A stretch of 64,000 bases of DNA, from NCBI GenBank assembly GCA_031216635.1, contig CM062274.1, forward strand, positions 26,484,913 to 26,548,912, given 5' to 3'. The notes under the pieces were generated by a model. The model had not been told where the DNA came from and ran no database searches. It saw nothing but the letters and a program-made list of their open reading frames with translations. Origin of the DNA: Dissostichus eleginoides (lineage: Eukaryota). Position numbers and translations under genes: made by a program. The stretch's first letter is position 1, and each line of letters starts with the position of its first letter. Positions 5,628 to 45,600 of this stretch are shown here, one piece after another.

Positions 5628-5638
5628 AAGGGGGGGGC
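5628..5638 (+). promoter_or_regulatory. Polypurine tract
   Basis: aaggggggggc directly abuts the 3'LTR start TGTGATG. Confidence 0.7.
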
Positions 5639-10326: not shown

Positions 10327-10348
10327 GATGAGTCACTTCCTCAGAAGG
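10327..10348 (+). promoter_or_regulatory. Proximal promoter element of lectin gene 1: single ETS-like ACTTCCTC motif fused to an AP-1-like TGAGTCA
   Basis: gatgagtcacttcctcagaagg lies about 100 bp upstream of the ATG. It is positionally homologous to the tandem gatgtgtgacttcctcaaag repeats of the paralogs. Confidence 0.4.
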
Positions 10349-10448: not shown

Positions 10449-12596
10449 ATGGAGGAAATCAATGACGATGTGGAAACTGTAAAACCCCTAACCCCAAGAT
10501 CAGCAACAATAAAAGAAGGTAAGTGTCAGTCAGACGGAGTGAGCTGTGGATTATGGATTTATTATACTCACTGGTCTTCTCTGTGTTCAGGTCCCAGGAG
10601 CTCAGAGAGATTTCCCCGAGCGTCTGTTCTCGGTTTTGGGCTGCTGAGTGTTTTCCTGCTGGCTGTCTTCATCGGACTCAAAGTCTACTGTTAGTCTGTT
10701 TTATAAGTTAATGTCATTTTGAATTTTCAAAAGCACTTTCTGCCCTCTGCCTTTTACTTAAGTTTGTATGAATGTATGAGGTATTTTCTGTTTAGAAAAC
10801 GTGTCTCTTGATCATTTCAGGCCATTACTTAGAAGGTGTTGCAGCTGCAGATCTCTCCGCTGTCAAAGCAAACCTGACTGAGAGTCTCCAGGCCAGAGAT
10901 CAGCAGCTGTCCTCCATGACTGAAGAGAGAGACAGACTGAAGGCCAACCTCACTGAAAAGACCAGAGAGGTGGACAGGCTCCAGAGTTTGATGGGTAAGG
11001 GTGAGTGCTTCATGTGGGGGGGTTTGCATAGGGCTCGGTATGTGTATGTAAGATATCAATTTCCATAATATTTTTTACAAAATACCTCGATATTGATAGT
11101 CTAAGGCTGACTATTGATGCTTTCATAAAATAGTAACACAATGACACTTTTCATTAATGATAATCAAGAAAGAGTTTTTAATGACTTAGTTGTGAGTGAT
11201 TTAATTCATAGTTTGTTTTATTTTTCTTCACCCACCATATTTATATTTCTCTGTAAACTATGCTTATGGCCAGTTTCCTTGTCTAAATTACTTTTAATAT
11301 AAGCAATAGGAAGAAGAACTTACAGGTAGTTTGTTCCAGATATTTGCAGCATAATAATAAAAAAGGATAACAAGGTTTCAAACCAATTTAGAACTGTTGC
11401 CGAAAGTCAGACCCAGTTTTCCAGTCGGTCTAGAAACTAACACCGAGATGTTGCCACTGTCTGTGTTTAAGTGGATGTCATTGAAGACTTTAACAAGATC
11501 AGTCTCAGTCTGTGGTGCCTGACTAGATCACATCGAAACAGTTATTTAAATCCCAAAAAAACAGAAGTAGTTGTTCTGCAATGAAATTTGTGATCTCTTT
11601 TGATCCCTCTAAAAATGCTTAATAAATATGTTTTTTCATTTTTATTACAAAAGTGACATATAATGCACTCAAGAGTTCCATATTTAAGCAGTTAAAGCAG
11701 TAAATCAACAAGATCTTACAACTTTTACAGAGACAACGTGTCCTGAAGGATGGAGGAAGTTTGGTAGTTCCTGTTATCTCCTCTCTACTGAGAAAGCTTC
11801 CTGGGAACAAAGCAGAGACAACTGCACAGCCAGAGGAGCAGATCTGGTGATCATAGACAGTTATGAAGAACAGGTAATGTGTGCTGCTCTAACACTTGTG
11901 ATTGTATAACTCCCTGCTTTTATCAATCAATAATGTTTTTATTGTACATATACTAGCAAATGTGTCTATCAGCTATAATGATTACGTTACAACAATGGTG
12001 TTAATTACATATTTCTGAGCTAGTAAAAAGGGAAAAGTTATCTGAATGTTGATGTCCATCCCAGTAAACTGCATTTTTAATATGTGAACAGGAATTCATC
12101 CCCAGCATGATCAAGGAAGAAACTTGGATTGGTTTGAGTGACAGAGAAGAGGAGGGGACCTGGAAATGGGTGGATGGATCTCCACTGACCCTGAATCTGA
12201 CGTAAGGCTTTACTTTGGTTTAAATACAGACGCTGGTTTATGTTGTGACCTTTCTAAATGTTTCACATGTTTCTGTAATGGGAGTTAACACAACACACAG
12301 GATGCATTTAAACGTAGGATGTCTGCCCCTTTCACCAGAAGATTCATTTGGGTATTAAGAAAAGAACATGGCTGTATTACTTATAGTTATTTGTATTTGA
12401 TGTCCAATCTTTTAGTTAATCTTGTTTTCCTGTAATACCTGTTAGGTTTTGGATAGAAGGAGAGCCTAATAATGGAGGAGGGCGTCCAGAGTGGGGTGAA
12501 GAGGACTGTGCACTGATCTATTTTTTTTACATCAAAACGTGGAACGACCTGTCCTGTGAGGACGATCTGCATTCGATCTGTGAGAAAGAAGCTTAA
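10449..12596 (+). CDS. Type-II C-type lectin, CD209/DC-SIGN-like (CLEC4-like), gene 1: the only fully intact copy (six exons, EPN mannose-type CRD)
   Basis: Exons are 10449-10518 ([24 protein letters not shown]), 10591-10689 (TM: [24 protein letters not shown]), 10821-11000 (neck: [51 protein letters not shown]), 11731-11873 ([45 protein letters not shown]), 12092-12201 ([37 protein letters not shown]) and 12446-12596 ([49 protein letters not shown]). All junctions are GT/AG and the phases are consistent. Confidence 0.85.
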
Positions 12597-14379
12597 CATT
12601 GGTGTCTGTTTGGATACCAAACATGCAATCAAGCTTTTACAATTTATTTTAAATTGAGTTATTTAAAACTATTCAAAATGCCTGATTTCATGAATAAGAA
12701 TTACGTTTCTTGTTTCGATAAATCCTAATTAGTTTAGATTAATGTCAGTAATAAATAAATAGTCATTTAATTTTTTTTTTGCCAACTTTTGTTTGCCTCA
12801 ATTAAATTAGTGTTTGTATTAATCCTTTTACCTATCAACATAAAAACAGCTTCTTAAAAACATCTGCTGATAAGCCCACAGTTCCTGAAAGTTATAATAT
12901 TGAAGGTGCCTTATTGAGCAGAATATGATACAAAAAAGAAAAATAACAACTGTCAAACGTTATTGAATAATTCCGACATATACAACAATACTCTAGACTC
13001 AGCATTGGTCTAACTTGTTCAAATGTGTAAAATAGCCTGTGTGTTATACAGTATGTTTCCTAACAATGACCTCTTGTGGCCATGTGAGTACAAATCTATT
13101 GCAGGTATTTAACATTCATAGGTACCAGCCACTTTGTACATACTGTAAGAACTAGTGCTGTCAATTAATACAAAAATTTATGTATGTTTATCACAATAAT
13201 AATCTGGGTCTTTAACTTCAGGATTTGCTCATGTTTCATTTAAAAAGTAAACTGCCTTTTATTTGAAGTTAATTACAGTACTTTAGTAAATGGGCAAATT
13301 AGATATAGCTAGATCAGGAAATGGCAACTTTCTTTGAGCATGCATACAAAGATAAAAACCGTATGAATATATTGTGGGTGTATTACATGTTCTCTGACAA
13401 GATAAAGCTCTTCCACTTCAACAAACTGCTGTTATCAGATAAAAAGCAGCTTTACCGCTTCACCTTTTTTTCTCAAAGTGAACAACTCCTTCCTGAAAGT
13501 TATCTTTGAAATGTATATATCTATGAAAATAATTTCAAATGAAGATCCCTGCTTTCACAACAATGTCATACTATTCTCTTTTTATTAACCAGTAAAACAG
13601 ATCTATACAGGATCAATACATTTTGAATATTATTCAATTAATGCAAATATTGGTTTGAGTGACAGAGAAGAGGAAGCGACCTGGAAATGGGTGGATGGAT
13701 CTCCACTGAATCTGACGTAAGGCTCTACTTTGGTTTAAATACAGACGCTGGTTTATGTTGTGACTTTTCTAACTTAATTTACACTGTGAGGGCATAAAGT
13801 CACATGTTTCTGTAATGGGAGTCAACACAACACACAGGATGCATTTCAAGTAAATGTTCAAATTTGATATAACTAGATCACGCAATGGCAACTTTTTTTT
13901 GACACGCATACCAAGATAAACACCTCAAAAGAAATACTGTAGGTATACTGAATGTGATTTGACAAGATAAAGCTCTTGCATTTCAACCAATTGGTGTCAT
14001 CAGATATAAAAGTGACTCTACCACCTCCTATGTTTTTCAACGTGAATAAATCTAAACGTTGTATGTTTATGATCAGCAGCAGACAGAATGCTTCAGAGGA
14101 AAGAAATTACAAAAAGTGAAATGCACACAACTGATGTTTGGTATTTGGCTTCATCAAGTGTCAATTGTTTTTTGTTAAGGAGGTCATACATAGTTTATTT
14201 GTGTAATCATAAACAAATGTAAGTATTTTGAAATGTTGTTGAAATCCAGATGTTACATTTATCTACCTGTTACAAAAAATAAAAACTATCAAAAATAATG
14301 AATCAAGTACTGCCAATATTATTTACCGAATAGATTTCATTGCCAGTCAGTCTTAAAATGTCTGTAATTGTTTTACCTC

Positions 14380-14945: not shown

Positions 14946-15224
14946 GTCAAAGGCAAAGTTCATTAGAGACAAGGGATACTTACACCGATCAACCATAACA
15001 TCATGACCACTGACAGGTGAAGTCAAAATTATGGGGGGGGACCCTAAAAATGACCTTTCTTATTAGGGGATCGCCCCCTGATAATGGTGGTGGAGATCTA
15101 CAGTGAGGTGAAGAGGACTGTGCAAGTCTTGTAAATGGAAGGGAAACCAGAAAAAACTGGAATGATCTGCAGTGAACTACCTTTCTGCAATGGATCTGTG
15201 AAACAATGGCTTAGATTATGGCTG

Positions 15225-15440: not shown

Positions 15441-16691
15441 TGTGTTAATACTTTTACAATTTATGCAAAATGACTTCCAAAGTGCTTTTGTATTTGCCAC
15501 ATTATGGAGAAAGAGATTCTACATCAACAAGTGGTTGGAGGTCAGGAATGAAGATATTGGTTTGAGTTTTGGCCAAATTTGACTGCTTGTTACTGGGAAT
15601 ATTACATGGGAAATTAGGATGTTTAGCATGTATCTTTATTTATACGTGCTCATGACCATCATATGCAATTAAAGAAAGCTACTTATTGAAAAAAACTCCC
15701 ATTGGGATTTTAGCCTTTGAGACAATTTACATGCACAAAAACCTATATAACACACTAGGGAAGGGAAACCCCAAAAAGCATAACAGGGCCTCTTTTAGAC
15801 ATTAATTGGTGGATGGGTTTTGTACAGGATATTTTCACACACTCTGAAACGTGTAACTTCCTATTTAAAAAAAATAAGAAGAGAAATGTAACCAAAAGAC
15901 ATGACATTTTTACTACTTTGAAAAGAGCCTTCTGCAAACAATGGATAAATTGTACGTACTGTACTACTAAGTTTAAAATGATAGATAGATTTACAAATGT
16001 ATTCTTGTATAAGTTCACCTGTCTAGTCCTGTCATTGCACTTCCTGTTTTATTTTGTACTTACCTTTCCCTCTCGTTTCAGAGCTCTCCTGCCCTTGTGT
16101 GTCTGTTGCAACCTTTTCCCATTACCTCGTGTATATATAGTCCTCGTCTCCCTTTGTCCTGTGCCGGTTCGTCTTGTGCCTTGTGCCATCAAGAGAGCCA
16201 GCTTTTCATGCCAAGAAACATTTGTAGCTGCTTTCACAATGAAGACATGCTATTCTCTTTTTATTAACCAGTAAAATAGATCTTTACAGGAACAGAATAT
16301 TTTGAATATTATTCATCTTAATGGCTTTGTAAGATTATATGTCTCTATTTAACACAATCGACATGATTATCACACTTGTTTCAGTCTTAAATCTGTATTG
16401 TCAATGTGCTTTGGCAATAATATGTTTTTAATATAGTCATATCAATAAAGTGTATGTGAATTTGTCTTGACACTCAGTGTGAGAAATAAACAGTATTTCC
16501 TGATAGTCTTGTTTTTTTTTTTAATAGATATGAAAAGGATGTTCAAGGTTCAAGGTTCTTTATTTGTCATACGAACATAGCTACAGAGTAGTTATGTCGA
16601 TGAAAATCTTAGGTCACAGGCTTCTCCAACAGTGCAACACAATAATACAGAAAAACAGAAAAACATAGTGCAAGTAAATATTAAAAAGTAT

Positions 16692-16739
16692 GGATGTGTG
16701 ACTTCCTCAAAGGATGTATGACTTCCTCAAAAATATAAA
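16692..16739 (+). promoter_or_regulatory. Two tandem 20-bp GATGTGTGACTTCCTCAAAG promoter repeats of lectin gene 2 (ETS/PU.1-like core GAGGAAGT on the reverse strand)
   Basis: Direct reading. The repeat is 4 copies at 25540-25619 (gene 3), 2 copies at 48163-48210 (gene 5) and 54192-54240 (gene 6), and 1 mutated copy at 36454-36480 (gene 4). Confidence 0.5.
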
Positions 16740-16844: not shown

Positions 16845-18992
16845 ATGGAGGAAATCTATGTCAATGTTGACGATATCAAACCCCTAAGCTCAAGATCATC
16901 TGCAAAACAAGAAGGTAAGAGTATCAGACCGAGTGCACTGTGGATTTTGGATTTATTAAACTCCCTGGTTTCTCTGTGTTCAGGTCCCAGGAGACTTCTC
17001 AGAGCGTCTGTTCTCGGTCTGGGGCTGCTGGGTGTTTTCCTGCTGGCTGGACTCATCGGCCTCGCTGTCCACTGTGAGTCTTTCTTTTAATACGTTTAAT
17101 AATGTCATTTTGAACGTGTGATTTTCAAGAGCAATATTCTGCTCTGAAAGATGCACATTTGACCAAAACCTCTATCGTTTTTCTACTTTTCTCCTAGGTC
17201 CAAAATAGGAAAACGTTCATTTTGGTTTGTCAGTATGATTGCATCAGGTAATTTAAAAAGACATCTATTTTCATTTCAGCTGCAGATCTCTCCGCTGTCA
17301 AAGCAGACTTGACTGAGCGTCTCCAGGCCAGAGATCAGCTGATCAACCAGCTGTATGTCAACCTCACTGAAAAGACCAGAGAGGTGGATTGTTTGAGTGA
17401 GTGCTTCATGTGGGGGTTTGCATAGGGCTCGGTATGTGTATGTAAGATATCAATTATCATAATATTTTGTACAAAATACCTCAATATTGATTATCTAAGG
17501 CTGACTATTGATCCTTTCATAAAATAGTTACACAATGAAACTTTTCATTAATGATAATTAAGAATTATTTTTTAATGACTTAGTTGTGAGTGATTTAATT
17601 TATAGTTTGTTTTATTTTTCTTCAGCCACCATATTTATATTTCTCTGTAAACTATGCTTATGGCCAGTTTCCTTGTCTAAATTACTTTTAATATAAGCAA
17701 TAGGAAGAAGAACTTAGAGGTAGTTTGTTCCAGATAATTGCTGCATAATAATAATAATAAAAAAGGATAACAAGGTTTCAAACCAATTTAGAACTGTTGC
17801 CGAAAGTCAGACCCAGTTTTCCAGTCGGTCTAGAAACTAACACCGAGATGTTGCCACTGTCTGTGTTTAAGTGGATGTCATTGAAGACTTTAACAAGATC
17901 AGTCTCAGTGCTGTGGTGCCTGACTAGATCACATCGAAACAGTTATTTAAATCCCAAAAAAAGAGAAGTAGTTGTTCTGCAATGAAATGTGTGATCTCTT
18001 TTGATCCCTCTAAAAATGCTTAATAAATATGTTTTTTCATTATTATTACAAAAATGACATATAATGCACTCAAGAGTTCCATATTCCAGCAGTTAAAGCA
18101 GTAAATCAACAAGATCTTAACACTTTTACAGCAACAATGTGTCCTGAAGGATGGAGGAAGTTTGGTTGTTCCTGTTATCTCCTCTCTACTGAGAAAGCTT
18201 CTTGGGAACAAAGCAGAGACAACTGCAGAGCCAGAGGAGCAGATCTGGTGATCGTAGACAGTGATGAAGAACAGGTAATGTGTGCTGCTCTAACACTTGT
18301 GATTGTATAACTCCTTGCTTTTATCAATCAATAATGTTTGTATTGTACATATACTAGCAAATGTGTCTATCAGCTATAATGATTACGTCACAACAATGGT
18401 GTTGATTACATATTTCTGAGCTAGTAAAAAGGGAAAAGTTATCTGAATGTTGATGTCCATCCTAGTAAACTGCATTTTTAATATGTGAACAGGAATTCAT
18501 CTCTAGCATGAAGATGAAGGAAGACACTTGGATTGGTTTGAGTGACAGAGAAGAGGAGGGGACCTGGAAATGGGTGGATGGATCTCCACTGACTCTGACG
18601 TAAGGCTTTACTTTGGTTTTAAATACAGACGCTGGTTTATGTTGTGACCTTTCTAAATGTTTCACATGTTTCTGTAATGGGAGTTAACACAACACACAGG
18701 ATGCATTTAAACGTAGGATGTCTGCCCCTTTCACCAGAAGATTCATTTGGGTATTAAGAAAAGAACATGGCTGTATTACTTATAGTTATTTGTATTTGAT
18801 GTCCAATCTTTTAGTTAATCTTCTTTTCCTGTAATACCTGTTAGGTTTTGGATAGAAGGAGAGCCTAATAATGGAGGAGGGGATCCACAGGTGGGTGAAG
18901 AGGACTGTGCACTCATCAAACCTTACACCAAGAGGTGGAACGACCGGTTCTGTAAGACCGATATGCATTGGATCTGTGAGAAAGAAGCTTAA
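16845..18992 (+). CDS. CD209-like C-type lectin, gene 2 (type A, EPN); the neck exon carries an in-frame 18-nt deletion
   Basis: Exons are 16845-16914 ([24 protein letters not shown]), 16984-17073 (TM), 17280-17396 ([38 protein letters not shown], lacking the RLQSLMDKG end), 18132-18274 ([45 protein letters not shown]), 18493-18599 ([36 protein letters not shown]) and 18845-18992 ([48 protein letters not shown]). Confidence 0.75.
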
Positions 18993-20394: not shown

Positions 20395-20527
20395 AGAGCC
20401 TAATAATGGAGGAGTGCATCCACAGTCGGGTGAGGAGGACTGTGCACACATCCATCCTTACAGCAAAAGGTGGAACGACCTGTCCTGTAAGAACGATCTG
20501 CATTGGATCTGTGAGAAAGAAGCTTAA
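20395..20527 (+). pseudogene. Orphan C-type lectin terminal-exon (exon 6) fragment lacking its acceptor
   Basis: ...[42 protein letters not shown] is joined to the L1 fragment by a deletion. It is followed by the usual post-gene tail repeat. Confidence 0.6.
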
Positions 20528-22362: not shown

Positions 22363-25300
22363 TTAAGATCCCTGCTTTCACAACAATGTCATACTATTCT
22401 CTTTTTATTAACCAGTAAAACAGATCTATACAGGATCAATACATTTTGAATATTATTCAATTAATGCAAATATTGGTTTGAGTGACAGAGAAGAGGAAGC
22501 GACCTGGAAATGGGTGGATGGATCTCCACTGAATCTGATGTAAGGCTCTACTTTGGTTTAAATACAGACGCTGGTTTATGTTGTGACTTTTATAACTTAA
22601 TTTACACTGTGAGGGCATAAAGTCACATGTTTCTGTAATGGGAGTCAACACAACACACAGGATGCATTTCAAGTAAATGTTCAAATTGATATAACTAGAT
22701 CACGCAATGGCAACTTTTTTTTGACACGCATAGGCTACCAAGATAAACACCTCAAAAGAAATACTGTAGGTATACTGAATGTGATTTGACAAGATAAAGC
22801 TCTTGCATTTCAACCAATTGGTGTCATCAGATATAAAAGTGACTCTACCACCTCCTATGTTTTTCAACGTGAATAAATCTAAACGTTGTATGTTTATGAT
22901 CAGCAGCAGACAGAATGCTTCAGAGGAAAGAAATTACAAAAAGTGAAATGCACACAACTGATGTTTGGTATTTGGCTTCATCAAGTGTCAATTGTTTTTT
23001 GTTAAGGAGGTCATTTATAGTTTATTTGTGTATTCATGTAATCATGAACAAATGTAAGTATTTTGAAATGTTGTTGAAATCCAGATGTTACATTTATCTA
23101 CCTGTTACAAAAAATAAAAACTATCAAAATAATGAATCAAGAACTGCCAATATTATTTACCGAATAGATTTCATTGCCAGTCAGTCTTAAAATGTCTGTA
23201 ATTGTTTTAACTCTCAGCAAAAGACTCTTTCAGGTATCCACCTAAACATTCGGGAAGGGGAAGTGAGAGTTGTTAGAGGGGCTTCAATGTGGCTATAGTT
23301 GCAAATAAACCTTCTGTAAAAGTTAGCAAAACCCAGGAACTTTTGTAGTTGCTTACAGCTTTCCAAACTGGACCTGTCATGGACTGCTTTCACCTTGGCC
23401 AGGTCCATTCTTACTTGTCCTTTGGCCATGATGTAGCTGGGAAAAGAGACCGTAGAAGCATGAAACTCACTACTCTGCTTTAACGAACATGTGATTCTCC
23501 AAAACAGCTGTGCTTCACATGCTCATTTTGTTCATTTAAAAAAAAAAATCTGAATGTCATCAAGGTATATGAAAACAATATGTTAAATATGTGCCCAAGG
23601 ACAACATTTACCAGGTTTTGGAATATAGCAGGGGCATGTGTGAGTCCAAACGGCATCACCAGGTTTTCCAAATGGGCAGAGGGGTGTTGAAAGCCGTCTT
23701 CCACTCGTCTTCTTTACGGATCCGGACTGGGAGGTTTGCATTTCGGAGATCAGGTTTGGTGAAAATTGTGGCATAGGGGTCAAAGGCAAAGTTCATTAGA
23801 GACAAGGGATACTTACACCGATCAACCATAACATCATGACCACTGACAGTGTGAAGTCAAATTATGGGGGGGACCCTGAAATGACCTTTCTTATTAGGGG
23901 ATCGCCCCTGATAATGGGGTGGTGGAGATCTACAGTGGGTGAAGAGGACTGTGCAAGTCTTGTAAATGGAAGGGAAACCAGAAAAAACTGGAATGATCTG
24001 CAGTGAACTACCTTTCTGCAATGGATCTGTGAAACAATGGCTTAGATTATGGCTGTGAGGCAGTGGGTTTGTCTTCAAATAGGAAGGTTGTGGGTTCAAC
24101 CCCTGCTCCTGCCGTCAACATGTCGCTGTATCCCACTTAACCCCAAATTGCTCCCATGGCCAATGTGTGAATGTAAGCTTCCTTGAGCAGGGGGCTCTTT
24201 CTTTGGCTGACCCTGCCTATGAATACTAGTAAAGACTGCTTTATATAAAATGCAGTCCATTTACCAATACATGTGTTAATACTTTTACAATTTATGCAAA
24301 ATGACTTCCAAAGTGCTTTTGTATTTGCCACATTGTATATATGGAGAAAGAGATTCTACATCAACAAGTGGTTGGAGGTCAGGAATGAAGATATTGGTTT
24401 GAGTTTTGGCCAAATTTGACTGCTTGTTACTGGGAATATTACATGGGAAATTAGGATGTTTAGCATGTATCTTTATTTATACGTGCTTTATACGTGCTCA
24501 TGACCATCATATGCAATTAAAGAAAGCTACTTATTGAAAAAAACTCCCATTGGGATTTTAGCCTTTGAGACAATTTACATGCACAAAAACCTATATAACA
24601 CACTAGGGAAGGGAAACCCCAAAAAGCATAACAGGGCCTCTTTTAGACATTAATTGGTGGATGGGTTTTGTACAGGATATTTTCACACACTCTGAAACGT
24701 GTAACTTCCTATTTAAAAAAAATAAGAAGAGAAATGTAACCAAAAGACATGACATTTTTACTACTTTGAAAAGAGCCTTCTGCAAACAATGGATAAATTG
24801 TACGTACTGTACTACTAAGTTTAAAATGATAGATAGATTTACAAATGTATTCTTGTATAAGTTCACCTGTCTAGTCCTGTCATTGCACTTCCTGTTTTAT
24901 TTTGTACTTACCTTTCCCTCTCGTTTCAGAGCTCTCCTGCCCTTGTGTGTCTGTTGCAACCTTTTCCCATTACCTCGTGTATATATAGTCCTCGTCTCCC
25001 TTTGTCCTGTGCCGGTTCGTCTTGTGCCTTGTGCCATCAAGAGAGCCAGCTTTTCATGCCAAGAAACATTTGTAGCTGCTTTCACAATGATGACATGCAA
25101 TTCTCTTTTTATTAACCAGTAAAATAGATCTTTACAGGAACAGAATATTTTGAATATTATTCATCTTAATGGCTTTGTGAGATTATATGTCTCTATTTAA
25201 CACAATCGACATGATTATCACACTTGTTTCAGTCTAAATCTGTATTGTCAATGTGCTTTGGCAATAATATGTTTTTAATATAGTCATATCAATAAAGTGT

Positions 25301-25539
25301 ATGTGAATTTGTCTTGACACTCAGTGTGAGAAATAAACAGTATTTCCTGATAGTCTTGTTTTTTTTTTTGGATAGATATGAAAAGGATGTTCAAGGTTCA
25401 AGGTTCTTTATTTGTCATACGAACATAGCTACAGAGTAGTTATGTCGATGAAAATCTTAGGTCACAGGCTTCTCCAACAGTGCAACACAATAATACAGAA
25501 AAACAGAAAAACATAGTGCAAGTAAATATTAAAAAGTAT

Positions 25540-25619
25540 GGATGTGTGACTTCCTCAAATGATGTGTGACTTCCTCAAAGGATGTGTGACTTCCTCAAAG
25601 GATGTATGACTTCCTCAAA
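25540..25619 (+). promoter_or_regulatory. Four tandem copies of the 20-bp GATGTGTGACTTCCTCAAAG promoter repeat (gene 3)
   Basis: Direct reading: gatgtgtgacttcctcaaat, gatgtgtgacttcctcaaag, gatgtgtgacttcctcaaag, gatgtatgacttcctcaaaa. Confidence 0.5.
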
Positions 25620-25732
25620 AATATAAAGCATTTAGAAATTCAAACCAGCAACCACACTTTCCCCGGTCACATACTTCAGGGTAATTGCTGCAGAGCTGAC
25701 CTTCTAGGAAATTGTTGGCATTCCCACGAGCA

Positions 25733-28674
25733 ATGGAGGAATTCTATGTCAATGTTGACGATATCAAACCCCTTAGCTCAAGATCATCTGAAAAACAAGA
25801 AGGTAAGAGTATCAGACAGAGTGCACTGTGGATTTTGGATTTATTAAACTCCCTGGTTTTCTCTGTGTTCAGGTCTCAGGAGACTTTCTCAGAGCGTCTG
25901 TTCTCGGTCTGGGGCTGCTGGGTGTTTTCCTGCTGGCTGGACTCATCGGCCTCGCTGTCCACTGTGAGTCTTTCTTTTAATACGTTTAATAATGTCATTT
26001 TGAACGTGTGATTTTCTAGAGCAATATTCTGCTCTGAAAGATGCACATTTGACCAAAATCTCTATCGTTTTTCTACTTTTCTCCTAGGGCCAAATTGGGA
26101 AAACATTTACTTTGGTTTGTGTCAGTATGATTGCATCAGGTAATTTAAGAAACATCTATTTTCATTCCAGACCATAACTCAGTAGGTGTTGCAGCTGAGC
26201 ATCTCCAGGCCAGTGATCAGCTGATCAACCAGCTGAAGGCCAACCTCACTGAGCGTCTCCAGGCCAGAGATCAGCTGATCAACCAGCTGAAGGCCAACCT
26301 CACCGAAAAGACCAGAGAGGTGGACAGGCTTCAGTGTTTGATGGACAAGGGTGAGTGCTTCATGTGGGGTTTTTGCATAGGGCTCGGTATGTGTAAGATA
26401 TCAATTATCATAATATGTTTTACAAAATACCTCGATATTGATAGTCTAAGGCTGACTATTGATCCGTTCATAAAATAGTTACAGAATGACACTTTTCATT
26501 AATGATAATTAAGAATTAGTTTTTAATGACTAAGTTGTGAGTGATTTAATTTATAGTTTGTTTTATTTTTCTTCACCCACCATATTTATATTTCTCTGTA
26601 AACTATGCTTATGGCCAGTTTCCTTGTTTAAATTACTTTTAATATAAGCAATAGGAAGAAGAACTTAGAGGTAGTTTGTTCCAGATATTTGCAGCATAAT
26701 AATAAAAAAGGATAACAAGGTTTCAATCCAATTTAGAACTGTTGCCGAAAGTCAGACCCAGTTTTCCAGTCGGTCTAGAAACTAACACCGAGATGTTGCC
26801 ACTGTCTGTGTTTAAGTGGAAGTCATTGAAGACTTTAGCAAGATCAGTCTCAGTGCTGTGGTGCCTGACTAGATCACATCGAAACAGTTATTTAAACCCC
26901 AAAAAAAAGAAGTAGTTGTTCTGCAATGAAATGTGTGATCTCTTTTGATCCCTCTAAAAATGCTTAATGAATATGTTTTTTCATTTTTATTACAAAAGTG
27001 ACATATAATGCACTCAAGAGTTCCATATTCCAGCAGTTAAAGCAGTAAATCAACAAGATCTTAACACTTTTACAGAGAAAACGTGTCCTGCAGGATGGAG
27101 GAAGTTTGGTTGTTCCTGTTATCTCCTCTCTACTGAGAAAGCTTCTTGGGAACAAAGCAGAGACAACTGCAGAGCCAGAGGAGCAGATCTGGTGATCGTA
27201 GACAGTTATGAAGAACAGGTAATGTGTGCTGCTCTAACACTTGTGATTGTATAACCCCCTGCTTTTATCAATCAATAATGTTTTTATTGTACATATAGTA
27301 GCACATTTGCGTATAAGCTATAATGATTATGTTACAACAATGGTGTTAATTACATATTTCTGAGCTAATAAAAAGGGAATAGTATGCTGAATGTTGATGT
27401 CCATCCCTGTAAACTGCATTTGTGAACAGGAATTCATCACCAGCATGATCAAGGAACAAACTTGGATTGGTTTGAATGACATAAACCAAGAAGGGACCTG
27501 GAAATGGGTCGATGGAGCTCCACTGACTCTGAAGTAAGGCATACAGAACATATTCATATATTTTGGAGTAGCTGCATCCTACTGATGTATATCGGTGTTT
27601 TTTTTATGACTGTCCAAACATTTATTAATTATTATCAATTTCAGAATTAACTAACATTTTAACATTCATTGCAAATAAAGCTAATAATCTAAAGACATGC
27701 ATACACACACATCTAGAGATGTGCAAAGAGGATAACATTTTTGGATATTGGGTAAAAAATGAATTCAATTTTAATTTTAATGTGCCATTATTCAATGTCC
27801 CTTTTTGCATAATACACTAGAAACCCAGGCAGAAAAAATAACAATTCAAAGCAGTTAGTTCACTTTAAAGACATAACAATTAAGATTCTGCCACAAATAA
27901 GCTGAAAGGCACAGTTATAGGTGTTAAAGTGTGTATGTATTTTAACGAGAGGTGTGATGAAAAAGGTGGAAAGAATAGTTTAGGAATCTTGGTTCGAGTT
28001 GAGAAGCTGCTGATCATAACCATAACCATTGAAAGTTCAAATTATTTCAACAACTCTTTTCATAAAGATCTCTTCTACATTTTGTGGTATCAAAAGAGAA
28101 TAATTAAACCAGTGCCACTTTGAGAATAGAATGAGAAATGGTAAAGCGTCTTTCTTTTCTTGAAACAGCAATTCGCCCTAAAATAGAGGAAAGGCGATGA
28201 AAGTAAATGAGAAGATTTCGCAAGAAAAAGGGTTGAGCTGAGGGTGTGAATGTGTGGTAGGCTATAAGCTGTGGGTTTTTAAATAGGGAAATACATAAAG
28301 CAGCTTTTATGTGTTGGCCACATGTGGCAGCTGTTTTTTAACCTAAATTGGCATGGCCTTTAGTGTGTTAATGTGTCCGAATGTTGTCTTTCGCTATGTG
28401 TTTTAATAGGTAAATGCTATATATGAAATGTATATGAAAAGCAATCTCAAGCAGAACGCATTACATCTATCACATTTGGGGGGGAACCTGAAAATGAACT
28501 TTCCTGCTATTACCTCCTAGGTACTGGGGATCGACCCCTGATAATGGTGGTGGAGATCCAGTGTGGGGTGAAGAGGACTGTGCAAGTCTTGTACCTGGAA
28601 GGGAAACCAGAACAAACTGGAATGATCTGCGGTGTGCTACCCGTCTGCAATGGATCTGTGAAAAAATGGCTTAA
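25733..28674 (+). pseudogene. CD209-like C-type lectin, gene 3 (type B, TPD terminal exon); 1-nt insertion frameshift in the TM exon
   Basis: Exons are 25733-25802 ([24 protein letters not shown]), 25873-25963, 26171-26350 (neck, 2 repeats: [54 protein letters not shown]), 27076-27218, 27430-27533 ([34 protein letters not shown]) and 28521-28674 (YWGSTPDNGGGDPVWGEEDCASLVPGRETRTNWNDLRCATRLQWICEKMA*). Exon 2 is 91 nt against 90 in the paralogs: gtctcaggagactttctc versus gtcccaggagacttctc. This shifts the TM frame unless it is a sequencing error. Confidence 0.7.
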
Positions 28675-32100: not shown

Positions 32101-32544
32101 CTGTAATTATCAATGCCATAATTTTCCCAGCTTTATCCTTGATGACTGGCACAAGTAGCACAGATAACATGGAAACTGGTAAGACACCAGGAAACCAGTA
32201 AGACACAGAGCAAGAAGAGGAGCAAGCTTAAGACTGGCATCTTTTAAGTGTTCAGCTGAGATGACATATGACAAGCATGATCATTTCTGACGTGGAGCTA
32301 ATCTAAACTAAACATTGAATACTGCTTTATATTCCTCCATCTTGTGACTGTGTAACTCCCTCTCTTGTATATCAGCATGTGAAGGACACTGTTCAGGAAC
32401 TAATTGTACCAAATGCTCTGTATGTGATGACTACTTCCATTCTTGCAAGGATAATAAATACATGTATCCTGATTATTGAAGCTCAAGCCGGTGAAGAGTG
32501 ATATTTTCCTAACAATTAGCATGAAAACACCTACCACAAACTCA

Positions 32545-32715
32545 GAGTGAGTGTTGGGGGTGCGGCAGAACCCGTGCACGCTGTCGTATCCCTCCGGAAC
32601 CTCGGTCAGGTTGAGGTCTTTCTTATGGACGTCAGTGCACTGACCCAACGCCACATCACACACCAACAGCAGCCGAGAGCCGTCTGTCTCGCTGGGCTTG
32701 GAGTATTTCAAACTG
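32545..32715 (-). pseudogene. Isolated PARP-catalytic-domain exon fragment (mono/poly-ADP-ribosyltransferase family)
   Basis: The minus strand reads ...KYSKPSETDGSRLLLVCDVALGQCTDVHKKDLNLTEVPEGYDSVHGFCRTPNTHSEF, bounded by an AG acceptor and a GT donor. It matches the PARP signature ...SKSxNY...LLLxEVALG.... No neighbouring PARP exons were found. A copy lies at 44259-44429. Confidence 0.5.
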
Positions 32716-34195
32716 GTGATGTGGATAAGGAGAGTGGAAAACAGTCTCACTACAGATGAGTGTGTTGTTGCCATCTGGTTCCCCATAGGATGAAATGAGG
32801 ATCAAAGACTCATTAGAAAAGCACCTTTTAGATCAGGGGTGTCCAAACTACGTCCCGGGGGCCAAATGCGGCGCGAGGATTTTGACTATGGGTGAATTCT
32901 GGGGGGGCTTGTGTGGTGATTGACATTATTCACCCACGGAACTATGGGTTTGGGTATTGTTCCGCACGGACATTTGAGTTATACGGACTTCCTGTTTACC
33001 CCGGTCTTGCTTCCCGGGCTTGAAGCTGTTGACATGTTGTTCAGATGCTAAATAAAAGTCTAGCTTGTACCTTTGATACCCCGCCTCCGACTCCCGTCTC
33101 TCGGCACTACAATACTTAAGAAATTGCTGGATATCACAGTCCTTATACTGTATCTTATCAGTTTGATTGAGTATTATTGTGTAGGTCCTTTTTATTTTAC
33201 TGTTACTTTGATGTGTTTCTAATGAGTCAGTCAAATTAATTTATTTTCATATGCCATATTCATATGTATCACACACGTAAGGGTAAGACACAAACCTATT
33301 TAACAAATGCAATGCAATGGATAAGCTTAATTTTCACTGAAGTCACAGATAACGTCATATCTAATATTTAAACAAATCATTTCCTTGTCACTAAAGCATT
33401 GACTACGCTATTCATCGTCCTTAAATGCAGGCTCTAAGTTACATGTTCCGTTCTACAGCCACAATAAGGCTGTTTCTCAAGTTGATGATAATAAAATGAA
33501 AAGAGGCATTGGTAATATTATTAAAAACAACAATGTTTGGGTCGTTCTTCGGATAGGCGGTTAGCTGCAATAAATAACTCCAGTTCAACAAACCATATTA
33601 CAATATCTAAGGGAGCGTTATTTCTGGACCATCTTGAAATGTGACGTTCATATTTTAAAGATACACACATTTTATTGTGAGGTTGATTTAAAATACACTA
33701 AGCCTCTCTTCAACAATACGTTGACGTTAGCTAGTCTATTTTATGCCATAGTAGAGCATAGCGAATTTAAATGAACCTTAACAATGCATACAGTAACCTA
33801 ACTAGCAAACTAACTATCTAACGTACAAGGAAGACCTTATTTTACCAACCTCACACAGAAGCCTTTTGGTATACAGTAGCATCCCACTTAATTTTTACAC
33901 TTCTCTATTACGTTTAACTTGGATGCTACGCATAGCATCGTTAGCACAGATGGAGCTACGATTGCTCAAATGCTAACCCAACTCTAAACATTCATTAACA
34001 TTAGCTAAATAAAAACACCAGTAACATAACATAAAGAACGCAGGGTTGACTTACCGAAGACACTGCATTCATGGACGGTCTGTTTTAACTGCAGATAAAT
34101 CCTATATTTGCATGACGAATAGTCCACCAGGAGCCAACACAACAAACACGGCCGAGTTCAAGTAGTGTTCTCCGCATGAGCTGAGCCCCTGTAGC

Positions 34196-36020: not shown

Positions 36021-36580
36021 TTCACCTGAGAGTGGATAGCTGAGAGGGAGACTGAAAGACTTATTCAGTAGTTCAACAAAAGGTAACTTAAATTGTCTCA
36101 ACTTTCAGAAACTACCATTACATTAACAGAATAATATTCTTTAAATCTGTGCCAATTCGTCTTGTGAGCCAGCTTTTCACACCAAAAGATATTTGTAGCT
36201 GCTTTCACAATGATGACATGTTATTCTCTTTTTATTAACCAGTAAAATAGATCTTTACAGGATCAGAATATTTTGAATATTATTAATCTTTCTGGCTCTG
36301 TAAGATTATATGTCTCTATTTAACACAATGGACATGATTATCACAATTGTTTCAGTCTTAAATCTCTATTGTCAATGTGCTTCGGCAATAGTATATGTTT
36401 TTAATATGGTCATATCAATAAAGTTAGTATTTCCTGATATTCTTTATATAAAATGATGTGTGATCTCCTCAAATAGATAAAGCATTTAGAAATTCAAACC
36501 AGCAACCACACTTTCCCCGGTCACATACTTCAGGATACTTGCTGCAGAGCTGACCTTCTAGGAAAGAGTTGGCATGAGCA

Positions 36581-39500
36581 ATGGAGGAAATATATGCCAA
36601 TGTTGACGATGTCATATCCCTAAGCTCAAGATCATCAACAATACAAGAAGGTAAGAGTGTCAGTTAGAGTGCACTGTGGATTTTGGATTTACTGTATTAC
36701 TCCCTGGTCTTCTCTGTGTTCAGGTCCCAGGAGATTTCCCCCAGCGTCTGTTCTCGGTCTGGGGCTGCTGGGTGTTTTCCTGCTGGCTGGACTCATCGGC
36801 CTCGCTGTCCACTGTGAGTCTTTCTTTTAATACGTTTAATAATGTCATTTTGAACGTGTGATTTTCAAGAGTAATATTCTGCTCTGAAAGATGCACATTT
36901 GACCAAAACATCTATAATTTTTCTACTTTTCTCCTCGGGCCAAGGTAGGAAAACATTGACTTTGGTTTGTGTCAGTATGATTGCATCAGGTAATTTAAGA
37001 AACATCTATTTTCATTTCAGACCATAATTCAGTAGGTGTTGCAGCTGAGCGTCTCCAGGCCAGAGATCAGCTGATCAACCACCTCAATGTAAACCTCACT
37101 GAGCGTCTCCAGGCCAGAGATCAGCTGATCAACCAGCTGAAGGCCAACCTCACTGAGCGTCTCCAGGCCAGAGATCAGCTGATCAACCAGCTGAAGGCCA
37201 ACCTCACTGAGCGTCTCCAGGCCAGAGATCAGCTGATCAACCAGCTGAATGTAAACCTCACTGAGCGTCTCCAGGCCAGAGATCAGCTGATCAACCAGCT
37301 GAAGGCCAACCTCACCGAAAAGACCAGAGAGGTGGACAGGCTTCAGAGTTTGATGGACAAGGGTGAGTGCTTCATGTGGGGTTTTTGCATAGGGCTCGGT
37401 ATGTGTAAGATATCAATTATCATAATATGTTTTACAAAATACCTCGATATTGATAGTCTAAGGCTGACTATTGATCCGTTCATAAAATAGTTACAGAATG
37501 ACACTTTTCATTAATGATAATTAAGAATTAGTTTTTAATGACTAAGTTGTGAGTGATTTAATTTATAGTTTGTTTTATTTTTCTTCACCCACCATATTTA
37601 TATTTCTCTGTAAACTATGCTTAAGGCCAGTTTCCTTGTCTAAATTACTTTTAATATAAGCAATAGGAAGAAGAACTTAGAGGTAGTTTGTTCCAGATAT
37701 TTGCAGCATAATAATAAAAAAGGATAACAAGGTTTCAATCCAATTTAGAACTGTTGCCGAAAGTCAGACCCAGTTTTCCAGTCGGTCTAGAAACTAACAC
37801 CGAGATGTTGCCACTGTCTGTGTTTAAGTGGATGTCATTGAAGACTTTAGCAAGATCAGTCTCAGTGCTGTGGTGCCTGACTAGATCACATCGAAACAGT
37901 TATTTAAATCCCAAAAAAAGAAGTAGTTGCTCTGCAATGAAATTTGTGATCTCTTTTGATCCCTCTAAAAATGCTTAATGAATATGTTTTTTCATTTTTA
38001 TTACAAAAGTGACATATAATGCACTCAAGAGTTCCATATTCCAGCAGTTAAAGCAGTAAATCAACAAGATCTTAACACTTTTACAGAGAAAACGTGTCCT
38101 GCAGGATGGAGGAAGTTTGGTTGTTCCTGTTATCTCCTCTCTACTGAGAAAGCTTCTTGGGAACAAAGCAGAGACAACTGCAGAGCCAGAGGAGCAGATC
38201 TGGTGATCGTAGACAGTTATGAAGAACAGGTAATGTGTGCTGCTTTAACACTTGTGATTGTATAACTCCCTGCTTTTATCAATCAATAATGTTTTTATTG
38301 TACATATAGTAGCACATTTGCGTATAAGCTATAATGATTATGTTACAACAATGGTGTTAATTACATATTTCTGAGCTAATAAAAAGGGAATAGTATGCTG
38401 AATGTTGATGTCCATCCCTGTAAACTGCATTTGTGAACAGGAATTCATCACCAGCATGATCAAGGAACAAACTTGGATTGGTTTGAATGACACAAACCAA
38501 GAAGGGACCTGGAAATGGGTCGATGGAGCTCCACTGACTCTGAAGTAAGGCATACAGAACATATTCATATATTTTGGAGTAGCTGCATCCTACTGATGTA
38601 TATCGGTGTTTTTTTTATGACTGTCCAAACATTTATTAATTATTATCAATTTCAGAATTAACTAACATTTTAACATTCATTGCAAATGAAGCTAATAATC
38701 TAAAGACATGCATACACACACATCTAGAGATGTGCAAAGAGGATAACATTTTTGGATATTGGGTAAAAAATGAATTCAATTTTAATTTTAATGTGCCATT
38801 ATTCAATGTCCCTTTTTGCATAATACACTAGAAACCCAGGTAGAAAAAATAACAATTCAAAGCAGTTAGTTAACTTTAAAGACATAACAATTAAGATACT
38901 GCCACAAATAAGCTGAAAGGCACAGTTATAGGTGTTAAAGTGTGTATGTATTTTAACGAGAGGTGTGATGAAAAAGGTGGAAAGAATAGTTTAGTAATCT
39001 TGGTTCGAGTTGAGAAGCTGCTGATCATAACCATAACCATTGAAAGTTCAAATTATTTCAACAACTCTTTTCATAAAGATCTCTTCTACATTTTGTGGTA
39101 TCAAAAGAGAATAATTAAACCAGTGCCACTTTGAGAATAGAATGAGAAATGGTAAAGCGTCTTTCTTTTCTTGAAACAGCAATTCGCCCTAAAATAGAGG
39201 AAAGGCGATGAAAGTAAATGAGAAGATTTCGCAAGAAAAAGGGTTGAGCTGAGGGTGTGAATGTGTGGTAGGCTATAAGCGGTGGGTTTTTAAATAGGGA
39301 AATACATAAAGCAGCTTTTATGTGTTGGCCACATGTGGCAGCTGTTTTTTAACCTAAATTGGCATGGCCTTTAGTGTGTTAATGTGTCCGAATGTTGTCT
39401 TTCGCTATGTGTTTTAATAGGTAAATGCTATATATGAAATGTATATGAAAAGCAATCTAAAGCAGAACGCATTACATCTATCACATTTGGGGGGACCTGA

Positions 39501-39672
39501 AAATGAACTTTCCTATTACCTGCTAGGTACTGGGGATCGACCCTTGATAATGGTGGTCTAACGTTGGGTGAAGAGGACTGTGCAAGTCTTGTATGGAAGG
39601 GAAACCAGAACAAACTGGAATGATCTGCGGTGTGCTACCCGTCTGCAATGGATCTGTGAAAAAATGGCTTAA
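36581..39672 (+). pseudogene. CD209-like C-type lectin, gene 4 (type B) with an expanded neck (five 18-aa repeats) and a 2-nt deletion frameshift in the terminal CRD exon
   Basis: Exons are 36581-36650 (MEEIYANVDDVISLSSRSSTIQEG; an out-of-frame uATG lies 7 nt upstream), 36724-36813 (TM: [30 protein letters not shown]), 37021-37362 (neck, 342 nt: [18 protein letters not shown] x5), 38087-38229, 38441-38544 and 39527-39672. Exon 6 reads YWGSTLDNGGLTLGEEDCASLVWKGNQNKLE*: tacctgg has become tatgg relative to gene 3, which gives a premature stop before WND/Cys. Confidence 0.7.
37040..37320 (+). repeat. Coding 54-bp VNTR (neck-repeat minisatellite) inside lectin exon 3
   Basis: aacctcactgagcgtctccaggccagagatcagctgatcaaccagctgaaggcc is repeated 5 times here. 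Gene 3 (26171-26350) and gene 6 (54780-54959) have 2 copies; gene 2 has 1; genes 1 and 5 have 1-2 variant copies. Each unit carries an N-glycosylation sequon NLT. Confidence 0.9.
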
Positions 39673-42655: not shown

Positions 42656-45600
42656 CACTGTCTGTAGAGGCTGCTGCGCCAATGTCTCCAAATCATGGAA
42701 GAGAACCGAGTAGAACTCTTCAAAGGGTTAATTAAAATCGAGATAACATGATTGTCTGACTCCTCTAGGCGACACATGAATTTGTACATTACATTTCTTA
42801 AAAGGGCTTGACAGGTACCCCCACGTTAACAAACAGCTGGCTGGCACTGTGCCATCCTGGTACCCTCACCAGCAACCGTATAGCATCATTGTATGCAATT
42901 TTAGTTTTTGCATGCTGCTAGCCTTGTAGTTACTCCACAGGTGAGCCGTGTACAATGGTGTACAGAAAGCTTTAAAAAGTGATACCTTGACATCTACAGA
43001 GCACTTGTGAAATGTCCGCATTAATATGTTTGCCTGGGCATACAGTTTGCAGCGTTGTCTATGGATGTCTTTGTCATCTGTGAGATCATCAGAGATATAA
43101 TGACCAAGGTACTTAATCTCACTGCACACAAGAAGAATGTTGCTACTGAGAATAAAATTAGGAAATACAGCCTTTTTATCCTCTTTACTTCGCACAATCA
43201 TGATGCTACTCTTCTTGGCATTATACTTAATATTAAAATCAATGCCATACTGGGAACAAATCCGAACAGAAGCTGTTGTAAGCCTGCACTGTACGGGGAA
43301 AAGATGATTAAATCATCTGCGTACATAAGGTGGTTGACAACAGTATCACCGATGACACTGCCAGTTTTACACAAGTTCAGTTTCCTAGACGGATCATCAA
43401 TGTACAGATTAAACAACAAAGGAGATCAAATCCCACCTTGCTTGACCCCATTACCAACATAAACATTTTCAGACACAGTATTGCCCCACTTCACCTGCAT
43501 AGTCTGATGTGCATACTAAAAGCCTAAGATCCTTATTATGTACTTGGGTACCCCTCTTTGGCACATTTTTTCAAATGATTTGAAATGATTCAGTCTATCA
43601 AATGCCCTAGAAGCATCAATAAAATACAGAAACATGGTGGAATTTTGGCTTCTATATTTTGCTATAATGTCTTTTAAAGCAAAAATACACATATCTGTGC
43701 TGTGTTTTCTTTTAAAACCAAACTGGTTGTCAGCTGTGGTAATATACCTTTCCAGCTTATCCAACATAATTTTCTCCAGCACTTTGGAGAGAATGCTAGC
43801 TAAAGCAATAGGTCTGTAATTATCAATGCCATTAATTTTCCCAGCTTTATCCTTGATGACTGGCACAAGTAGCACAGATAACATGGAAACTGGTAAGACA
43901 CCAGGAAACCAGTAAGACACAGAGCAAGAAGAGGAGCAAGCTTAAGACTGGCATCTTTTAAGTGTTCAGCTGAGATGACATATGACAAGCATGATCATTT
44001 CTGACGTGGAGCTAATCTAAACTAAACATTGAATACTGCTTTATATTCCTCCATCTTGTGACTGTGTAACTCCCTCTCTTGTATATCAGCATGTGAAGGA
44101 CACTGTTCAGGAACTAATTGTACCAAATGCTCTGTATGTGATGACTACTTCCATTCTTGCAAGGATAATAAATACATGTATCCTGATTATTGAAGCTCAA
44201 GCCGGTGAAGAGTGATATTTTCCTAACAATTAGCATGAAAACACCTACCACAAACTCAGAGTGAGTGTTGGGGGTGCGGCAGAACCCGTGCACGCTGTCG
44301 TATCCCTCCGGAACCTCGGTCAGGTTGAGGTCTTTCTTATGGACGTCAGTGCACTGACCCAACGCCACATCACACACCAACAGCAGCCGAGAGCCGTCTG
44401 TCTCGCTGGGCTTGGAGTATTTCAAACTGGTGATGTGGATAAGGAGAGTGGAAAACAGTCTCACTACAGATGAGTGTGTTGTTGCCATCTGGTTCCCCAT
44501 AGGATGAAATGAGGATCAAAGACTCATTAGAAAAGCACCTTTTAGATCAGGGGTGTCCAAACTACGTCCCGGGGGCCAAATGCGGCGCGAGGATTTTGAC
44601 TATGGGTGAATTCTGGGGGGGCTTGTGTGGTGATTGACATTATTCACCCACGGAACTATGGGTTTGGGTATTGTTCCGCACGGACATTTGAGTTATACGG
44701 ACTTCCTGTTTACCCCGGTCTTGCTTCCCGGGCTTGAAGCTGTTGACATGTTGTTCAGATGCTAAATAAAAGTCTAGCTTGTACCTTTGATACCCCGCCT
44801 CCGACTCCCGTCTCTCGGCACTACAATACTTAAGAAATTGCTGGATATCACAGTCCTTATACTGTATCTTATCAGTTTGATTGAGTATTATTGTGTAGGT
44901 CCTTTTTATTTTACTGTTACTTTGGATGTGTTTCTAATGAGTCAGTCAAATTAATTTATTTTCATATGCCATATTCATATGTATCACACACGTAAGGGTA
45001 AGACACAAACCTATTTAACAAATGCAATGCAATGGATAAGCTTAATTTTCACTGAAGTCACAGATAACGTCATATCTAATATTTAAACAAATCATTTCCT
45101 TGTCACTAAAGCATTGACTACGCTATTCATCGTCCTTAAATGCAGGCTCTAAGTTACATGTTCCGTTCTACAGCCACAATAAGGCTGTTTCTCAAGTGTG
45201 ATGATAATAAAATGAAAAGAGGCATTGGTAATATTATTAAAAACAACAATGTTTGGGTCGTTCTTCGGATAGGCGGTTAGCTGCAATAAATAACTCCAGT
45301 TCAACAAACCATATTACAATATCTAAGGGAGCGTTATTTCTGGACCATCTTGAAATGTGACGTTCATATTTTAAAGATACACACATTTTATTGTGAGGTT
45401 GATTTAAAATACACTAAGCCTCTCTTCAACAATACGTTGACGTTAGCTAGTCTATTTTATGCCATAGTAGAGCATAGCGAATTTAAATGAACCTTAACAA
45501 TGCATACAGTAACCTAACTAGCAAACTAACTATCTAACGTACAAGGAAGACCTTATTTTACCAACCTCACACAGAAGCCTTTTGGTATACAGTAGCATCC

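Follow-up and report, generated by a model that had tools for sequence, protein, structure and literature searches.

A 20-bp tandem repeat with a predicted ETS/PU.1-type site upstream of notothenioid C-type lectin genes

The stretch of Dissostichus eleginoides nuclear DNA analyzed here (64 kb in length; the window) carries genes for type II transmembrane C-type lectins, arranged head to tail, before whose start codons the same short unit recurs in differing numbers. What is this unit, how old is it, and are the differences in its copy number likely to have a bearing on the expression of the genes?

A 20-bp unit before six lectin start codons

The unit GATGTGTGACTTCCTCAAAG precedes six tandem type II C-type lectin genes of the CD209/CLEC4-like kind, designated g1 to g6 (ATGs at positions 10449, 16845, 25733, 36581, 48313, and 54345, respectively), and lies 103 to 193 bp 5' of the ATG. 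The best matches of the g3 protein, at 81 to 82% identity, are the "CD209 antigen-like protein E" of T. bernacchii and the "C-type lectin domain family 4 member E-like" protein of P. georgianus, followed by proteins of other notothenioids and then of other percomorphs. Comparison of the window with itself revealed a mosaic of recent segmental duplications with 86 to 99% identity. A scan with the 20-mer, allowing up to three mismatches, recovered 11 matches in the 64-kb window, against 0.01 expected from shuffled sequences, and all 11 are on the plus strand, each just 5' of a lectin start codon. The units are arranged head to tail with a period of 20, in one, two, three, or four copies among the paralogues and their orthologues.

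The array of g3 (about 25540 to 25619, plus strand) was recovered by Tandem Repeats Finder (period 20, 4.0 copies, 95% matches, score 146) and by the 20-mer scan as four head-to-tail units of the variants G, T, G, and G*, every one of which contains GACTTCCTCAAA; read from the minus strand, this is the PU box TTTGAGGAAGTC. Two units each are found in g2 (about 16692 to 16731, plus strand) and g6 (about 54192 to 54231, plus strand; TATAAAA stands 14 bp 5' of the first core), both recovered by Tandem Repeats Finder, the 20-mer scan, and a PU.1 position weight matrix (PWM; see below), and in g5 (48165 to 48204, plus strand; 20-mer scan and PWM), where the cores have decayed to TTCCCC and TTCCTA. 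The 20-mer scan finds a single unit in g4 (36455 to 36474, plus strand), with a destroyed core (TGATCTCC, containing GATCTCC) that gives no PWM match; its minus strand reads GGAGAT, and the GGAA core is gone. The single unit of g1, GATGAGTCACTTCCTCAGAA (10327 to 10346, plus strand), is diverged, and its PU box, which scores 8.69 in the PWM, directly adjoins the AP-1 heptamer TGAGTCA (10329 to 10335, plus strand).

A preliminary description of this DNA had placed the units about 110 to 190 bp 5' of the ATGs and had given these same copy numbers, including the mutated unit of g4 and the joining of the g1 copy to TGAGTCA, all of which our scans bear out; for g5, its count of two stands, and the substitution of both cores was absent from it. 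Its further claim that a conserved 22-mer follows all of the arrays holds for g2 to g6 (TTCCCCGGTCACATACTTCAGG; 25659 to 25680 in g3, plus strand) and fails for g1, where the 22-mer has diverged (ctcggtcacatgtgctgcag) and no match to TTCCCCGGTCACATACTTCAGG within three mismatches was found. In the 20-mer/22-mer scan and the alignment, TTCCCCGGTCACATACTTCAGG is conserved in g2 to g6 and in the notothenioid orthologues only, and it is notothenioid specific and lies outside the deep footprint described below. Between the array and the 22-mer, g2 to g6 and the notothenioid orthologues also have AACCACA (25650 to 25656 in g3), a RUNX-type consensus, whose conservation does not extend to the outgroups.

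The core of the unit and its conservation in percomorph fishes

On the minus strand, each intact unit reads GAGGAAGT, in which the GGAA core is present with a 3' GT (GGAAGT). Sites were scored with the PU.1 matrix and threshold (6.75, with a maximum of 10.68) given in the supplement of the macrophage ChIP-seq study of Pham et al. (2013; PMC3711439), a human matrix whose use on fish DNA assumes that ETS-domain specificity is conserved. The intact notothenioid units score 8.64, which falls within the "intermediate" range of 7 to 9, for which the same study found the highest PhyloP/PhastCons conservation. The g3 array accordingly gives four matches of 8.64 each (at 25548, 25568, 25588, and 25608); of the two g5 cores, TTCCCC scores 8.18, and TTCCTA, at about 6.70 as computed by hand from the matrix, is not among the above-threshold matches. 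The above-threshold sites per promoter thus number one in g1, two in g2, four in g3, none in g4, one in g5, and two in g6. Such matches are common, with 59 above the threshold across the window (about 0.9 per kb by chance) and 0.35 per kb scoring at least 8 on both strands of all of the sequence scanned, so that a PU.1 match by itself is weak evidence and the case has to be made from conservation and position.

For this comparison, we used homologous loci from three notothenioids, P. georgianus (L001), Pogonophryne albipinna (L002), and T. bernacchii (L003), and five other percomorphs, Plectropomus (L004), Anoplopoma (L005), Oreochromis aureus (L006), Scomber (L007), and Micropterus (L008), together with a contig (L009) from a sequencing-run assembly, which represents the spliced mRNA of a g1-type gene in another fish. 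Of the 26 lectin promoters from these eight species and the window, 24 have their best PU.1 match on the same strand, at a distance of 65 to 185 bp 5' of the ATG. In the homologous lectin genes of the five non-notothenioid percomorphs, TGACTTCCTC is present as a single copy on the same strand at a similar distance from the ATG; it is kept in Plectropomus, Anoplopoma, Micropterus, Oreochromis, and Scomber, as well as in the mRNA contig, amid flanks that cannot be aligned. An alignment anchored on the core displays a conserved island, tgACTTCCTC, within unconserved surroundings. The ATG of the unit is not conserved in the outgroups, which have GTGAC (O. aureus, Scomber, and the mRNA contig) or ATGAC (the others), and CTCAAAG is specific to the notothenioids, with CTCTTT in its place in the outgroups. 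A 10-mer that is kept in place from cichlids to mackerels while its neighbors are randomized indicates purifying selection on a cis-element, and the conservation of TGACTTCCTC constitutes a strong phylogenetic footprint, the firmest part of the case. The alignment also revealed a second noncoding island conserved across percomorphs, GCTGCAGAGCTGACC (25687 to 25701, plus strand; 32 to 46 bp 5' of the ATG), which has the same position in all of the paralogues and outgroups and is transcribed in the mRNA contig.

The assignment of the core to a class within the ETS family draws on the outgroup sites in particular. These single sites (GACTTCCTCTTT, typically (A/G)TGACTTCCTCTTT) score 9.88 of 10.68; their other strand, AAAGAGGAAGTCA, which with its A/T-rich flank gives AAAGAGGAAGT, agrees at 11 of 12 positions with AAAGAGGAAGTG, the top PU.1 12-mer, reported to be 80% occupied in vivo (Pham et al. 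2013, PMC3711439). A G at −2 is the preference of class III ETS proteins (SPI1) (Wei et al. 2010), and the sites have this G, within a 5' flank of the SPI class that is TTT in the notothenioids and AAA(A) in the outgroups. An ETS/PU.1-type core had been proposed in the preliminary description, and as a reading of the sequence this is upheld by the motif scan (8.64 against a threshold of 6.75), the G at −2, and the conservation among percomorphs. We therefore regard the core as a well-supported predicted ETS site of the SPI/PU.1 type; the factor that binds it, the myeloid expression of the genes, and an effect of copy number on transcription are what we infer from it. On balance, the unit probably carries an SPI-class ETS site (PU.1/Spi-B type) in the core or proximal promoter of myeloid-type lectin receptor genes, ancestrally single and amplified in the notothenioids.

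Could the motif instead be bound mainly by a non-SPI factor, such as an ETS protein of the ETS1/FLI/ELF type, a bZIP or TALE protein on TGAC, or, in the notothenioids, a TCF/LEF/SOX protein on CTCAAAG, with the gene family not being controlled by PU.1? ETS matrices overlap heavily, and the TG 5' of ACTTCC (GGAAGTCA, not the preferred GGAAGTG) is conserved beyond the demand of the PU.1 matrix, which is indifferent at this place; this TG could reflect another ETS member or a partner half-site, and the AP-1 heptamer of g1 overlaps its position. However, the GA 5' of GGAA with an A/T-rich flank, as in the outgroup sites with their near-maximal scores, is the SPI-class signature, CTCAAAG is confined to the notothenioids, and the P. 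georgianus orthologue does not share the heptamer, all of which makes control by a non-SPI factor very unlikely. ETS/AP-1 composite elements are known from the polyomavirus enhancer (PEA3/PEA1) and the macrophage scavenger receptor promoter. On the minus strand of g1 (GAGGAAGTGACTCATC), the GGAAGT core runs into TGACTCA in the same juxtaposition as in the composite GGAAGTGACTAA; unlike those elements, the arrangement is found in g1 only, with TGAGTGA in the P. georgianus orthologue (L001, 3116 to 3135) and GTGAC or ATGAC in other lineages, and in view of this one mismatch the heptamer may be fortuitous.

An SPI-class site near the start of such genes has a counterpart in mammals: human DC-SIGN/CD209 is reported to be regulated by PU.1 via its promoter, according to Dominguez-Soto et al. 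(2005, J Biol Chem 280:33123) as cited in PMC3877075. The fish genes likewise encode CD209-like C-type lectins, which are type II transmembrane proteins whose neck is a coiled coil, and have a PU.1-type site near the gene start; unlike the human regulation, which is experimental, the fish site is predicted from sequence, and the fish genes are not one-to-one orthologues. To our knowledge, the PU.1 sites of human DC-SIGN are not 20-bp tandem duplicates. The array is a further instance of well-known kinds of element: the PU box of myeloid promoters, the homotypic ETS cluster, and the promoter repeat of variable copy number. Were the arrays bound by Spi1/PU.1, mammals and percomorph fishes would have in common the control of CD209/CLEC4-type lectins by PU.1; such an ancient link between PU.1 and lectin regulation is plausible and apparently undescribed for fish, since a literature search for a study of a fish CD209 promoter and PU.1 or of a notothenioid lectin expansion retrieved nothing relevant.

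Position of the array relative to the transcription start

The spliced mRNA contig, which follows the genomic DNA without interruption between the motif and the ATG, has its 5' end 4 nt upstream of TGACTTCCTC, this being the end of a contig and not a mapped cap site. The element may hence coincide with the transcription start or be situated slightly 3' of it. The g1-type promoters have CATA(A/G)AA 33 to 35 nt 5' of the core; in the g1-type Anoplopoma gene L005_22510, the position equivalent to the contig end is preceded, at about 31 nt, by a beta-globin-like CATAAAA, whose counterpart in notothenioid g1 is CATAGAA. In the g1-type lineage, the box may therefore occupy about +5 to +14 and not a position upstream of the start. 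It is common for ETS sites to adjoin the start region or to fall slightly within it, so the reading as a DNA site is not undermined by this. In the PIE of FcgammaR1b, for example, a PU.1 box adjoins the start-site cluster of a TATA-less myeloid promoter (PMC2191524). Most of the fish promoters similarly are without a conserved TATA and would have a purine-rich PU box within tens of base pairs of initiation; they differ in that some paralogues have TATAAAA beside the array and that the box may be just downstream of the start. In g4, g5, g6, and T. bernacchii, a TATAAAA precedes the first core by 14 bp; none is found there in g2, g3, or their orthologues.

A location within the 5' untranslated region (UTR) would open the way to action at the RNA level, with copy number setting the number of upstream ATGs and damping translation or with the CUUCCUC pyrimidine tract serving as a translational element. 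Every notothenioid unit does have an ATG (GATGTG), and the T-type units encode an upstream open reading frame (uORF) of six codons, ATG TGT GAC TTC CTC AAA TGA (MCDFLK-stop). The mRNA contig includes the motif, and where TATAAAA is present (g4, g5, g6, and T. bernacchii), initiation would be expected about 30 bp further on, inside a two-unit array. Yet the island conserved in the outgroups is the ETS 10-mer, and the ATG falls outside the deep footprint; the contig comes from another species and a g1-type gene, g2, g3, and their orthologues are without the upstream TATA, and a signal of RNA structure is absent (see below). Taken together, these observations render an RNA-level role of the array unlikely. 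The two kinds of action could also be combined if the array straddled the start. Where TATAAAA adjoins the first unit, it would then direct initiation to about 30 bp on, about 4 nt before the second core and in the same register as the mRNA contig, and each unit would add a predicted ETS/PU.1 site to the core promoter and, to the 5' UTR, a 20-nt segment with an ATG (the uORF MCDFLK-stop). A transcriptional gain would thereby be coupled to translational damping, as a notothenioid-specific tuning that followed the weakening of the CTCTTT flank (9.88) to CTCAAA (8.64); we consider this combination improbable.

Three further candidates for the array and its immediate surroundings were considered and set aside. 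A conserved TATA and initiator 3' of the array would consist of TATAAAG (25622 to 25628, plus strand, just 3' of the g3 array) and CCACACT (about 25652); as a general feature this was rejected, for TATAAAG is found in g2 and g3, the other paralogues have GATAAAG or GTAAAG, and it is missing in the outgroups. A splice donor, CAG|GTAATT (25678 to 25685), that would place the array in an upstream noncoding exon is unlikely, as the other paralogues read CAGGATAC there and the mRNA contig is colinear with the genome. A structured nucleic acid was rejected, with no Rfam match in the whole window and a folding z score for the array DNA of −0.02 relative to shuffled sequences.

Copy number, gene decay, and history of the array

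All five non-notothenioid species have one copy each, and tandem amplification (one to four copies) is seen only in the notothenioids. Within these, a single copy is kept in some paralogue lineages (the g1 type, the GGGGAGTGAC type, and the GAGTTGTGAC type), and the 20-bp duplication occurred in one paralogue lineage. P. georgianus, Pogonophryne, T. bernacchii, and the window share the two-unit state, with the same T-unit/A-unit structure and the same flanks, which indicates that this state, common to three families and the window, is older than the split of those families. Later changes went in both directions: where g5 has two units, its orthologue in T. bernacchii has three, all intact (L003, 1642 to 1701), and the g4 unit is the equivalent of the second one in the T. 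bernacchii orthologue of g4, which is already weaker there (TGATTTCC, versus TGATCTCC in g4), so that the first g4 unit has been lost.

These observations fit the following course of events, in which the unit is taken to be an amplified SPI-class site. The percomorph ancestor would have had one (A/G)TGACTTCCTC, with GAGGAAGT on the template strand, which is positioned about 95 to 125 bp 5' of the ATG in most homologues and about 65 bp in one pair of Anoplopoma paralogues. In the Antarctic notothenioids, the site and its flanks would have been duplicated as a 20-bp head-to-tail unit, giving the two-copy state of the three families, with later expansion (to three in T. bernacchii and four in g3) and contraction (in g4) by slippage or unequal exchange; such changes in array length would have taken place while the lectin genes of the cluster continued to duplicate and to undergo gene conversion. 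Each intact unit would add one intermediate-affinity site in the same orientation, 20 bp or about two helical turns from the next. By raising ETS/PU.1 occupancy, the array might help to recruit or position the initiation complex, like mammalian myeloid PU boxes near start sites. Homotypic clusters of PU.1 motifs are reported to be bound more often and to be more conserved (Pham et al. 2013, PMC3711439), and duplicated GGAA motifs are found near start sites (Uchiumi et al. 2011, PMC3101357). The notothenioid arrays resemble these in having at least two same-type, intermediate-score sites close together near the gene start; in contrast to such clusters, which usually consist of irregularly spaced, independent sites, the fish units are exact head-to-tail copies in a 20-bp phase, recent, and variable among paralogues and species.

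The sequence next to the arrays records how recent some of these changes are. A 160-bp insertion of a dispersed, transposon-like repeat (25380 to 25539, plus strand) adjoins the 5' edge of the g3 array, and a copy that is 100% identical to it precedes the g2 array (16532 to 16691); other copies of the repeat, which starts with GGATGTTCAAGGTTCAAGG and has an A-rich 3' end, are found in the window (6763 to 6890) and in T. bernacchii (L003, 31088 to 30987). The insertion displaces the upstream sequence that adjoins the array in the other paralogues, and it is absent from the orthologous promoters L001_10932 of P. georgianus and L002_10001 of Pogonophryne. The possibility that the unit itself is part of a transposon was rejected, as the unit is found only before lectin start codons and the dispersed repeat only adjoins it. 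Between g2 and g3, identity is 98.1% over 3.2 kb 5' of the array and 93.3% 3' of it. This drop at the array points to a recombination or conversion breakpoint there and implies that the difference between two and four copies is very recent.

The coding sequences are in an uneven state. In the reconstructed coding sequences, g1 and g2 have intact open reading frames (ORFs) of 250 and 224 aa, respectively. The g3 gene (exon 1, 25733 to 25802, plus strand, 23 residues; stop codon at 28674) has a 1-bp insertion at about 25888 in transmembrane exon 2 (25873 to 25963), with CTTTCTC for CTTCTC, by which the frame from the canonical acceptor is lost, and a 244-aa ORF is obtained only via an alternative acceptor (25879|25880; AG 7 nt downstream). 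A 2-bp deletion in the last lectin-domain exon of g4 (39527 to 39672) leads to a premature stop, and in g5 a single base pair is missing from the end of the first lectin-domain exon (about 49865). Homology in g6 stops at 55165 after exons 1 to 3, and no C-type lectin domain (CTLD) exon for it was found in the 8.8 kb of the window that remain. With three of the six copies (g3, g4, and g5) disrupted in frame and one truncated, these are not six diverging functional genes; the single-base indels could alternatively stem from assembly errors. The cluster also contains orphan lectin-domain pseudo-exons with stops, at 13649 to 13714, 15032 to 15211, 20399 to 20524, 22472 to 22537, and 23893 to 24042.

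The proposal of the preliminary description that copy number drives expression divergence among the paralogues is weakened by this, and it now competes with neutral drift of array length in a cluster with at least half of its copies damaged. On that competing account, a single ETS site is functional, additional units have no measurable effect, and slippage or unequal recombination has produced neutral differences in copy number that do not underlie divergence in expression. Beyond the damage to the cluster, it is favored by the facts that the four-copy array belongs to the frameshifted g3, that the arrays of g2 and g3 sit at a breakpoint with identical sequence over the adjoining 160 bp, and that orthologues also differ in number, as g5 and its T. 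bernacchii counterpart do. Two units with intact cores are, however, retained in three notothenioid families and the window species, and cores decay mainly where ORFs decay. Intact boxes accompany the intact g1 and g2, g4 combines the want of a box with its 2-bp deletion, and g5 combines two mutated boxes with its 1-bp deletion; these last two are the clear frameshift copies, a pattern that fits selection on the box in working genes only. We view neutral variation in copy number as a serious, if not a probable, account.

If the arrays are bound by Spi1/PU.1, these promoters would offer a natural series of zero, one, two, three, and four identical sites, in a fixed 20-bp phase and near-identical backgrounds, bearing on the effect of homotypic ETS site number on promoter output. 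Promoter repeats of variable copy number that contain factor sites include the Sp1/EGR1 repeats of ALOX5, the MAOA uVNTR, and yeast promoter repeats. The array shares with them a short unit with a factor site, change by slippage or unequal exchange, and the proposed logic of a "tuning knob"; unlike those repeats, which are allelic and linked to expression, the fish variation is between paralogues and species and is known here from sequence.

Several other features of the window were recorded. The neck exon contains a 54-bp (18-residue) coding repeat, present in two copies in g3 (26195 to 26303), five in g4 (37045 to 37315), and two in g6 (54804 to 54912), and the necks of g1, g2, and g5 are built differently; this variation among paralogues recalls that of the neck repeats of DC-SIGN and L-SIGN. 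The last lectin-domain exon has an EPN motif in g1 (12446 to 12596), g2 (18845 to 18992), and g5 (50451 to 50577) and TPD or TLD (YWGSTPDNGGG) in g3 (28521 to 28674) and g4 (39527 to 39672), two kinds that suggest exon exchange and different sugar specificity. The cytoplasmic N terminus, MEE(I/F)Y(V/A)NV (25733 to 25760 in g3), contains a tyrosine motif of the YxN type, and its conservation reaches from the notothenioids as far as Oreochromis and Scomber; in g1 it reads MEEINDDV, with the tyrosine lost. In a GC-rich stretch (GC content, 0.48 to 0.53), a long ORF that includes a protease-like region and a zinc knuckle of the CCHC type (2911 to 4758 and 4931 to 5629, plus strand) is most likely a gag-pol remnant of a long terminal repeat (LTR) retrotransposon. 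An ORF fragment resembling the PARP catalytic domain (EGYDSVHG; 32400 to 32786, minus strand) lies in an 11-kb unit that is duplicated between the g3/g4 and g4/g5 intervals, and such a fragment is also present in the duplicate copy (42656 to 48097). Finally, positions 56038 to 56319 are made up of two adjoining, mutually inverted blocks of 19- to 25-bp tandem repeats (CTCACACACATGAAACGCA and its complement).
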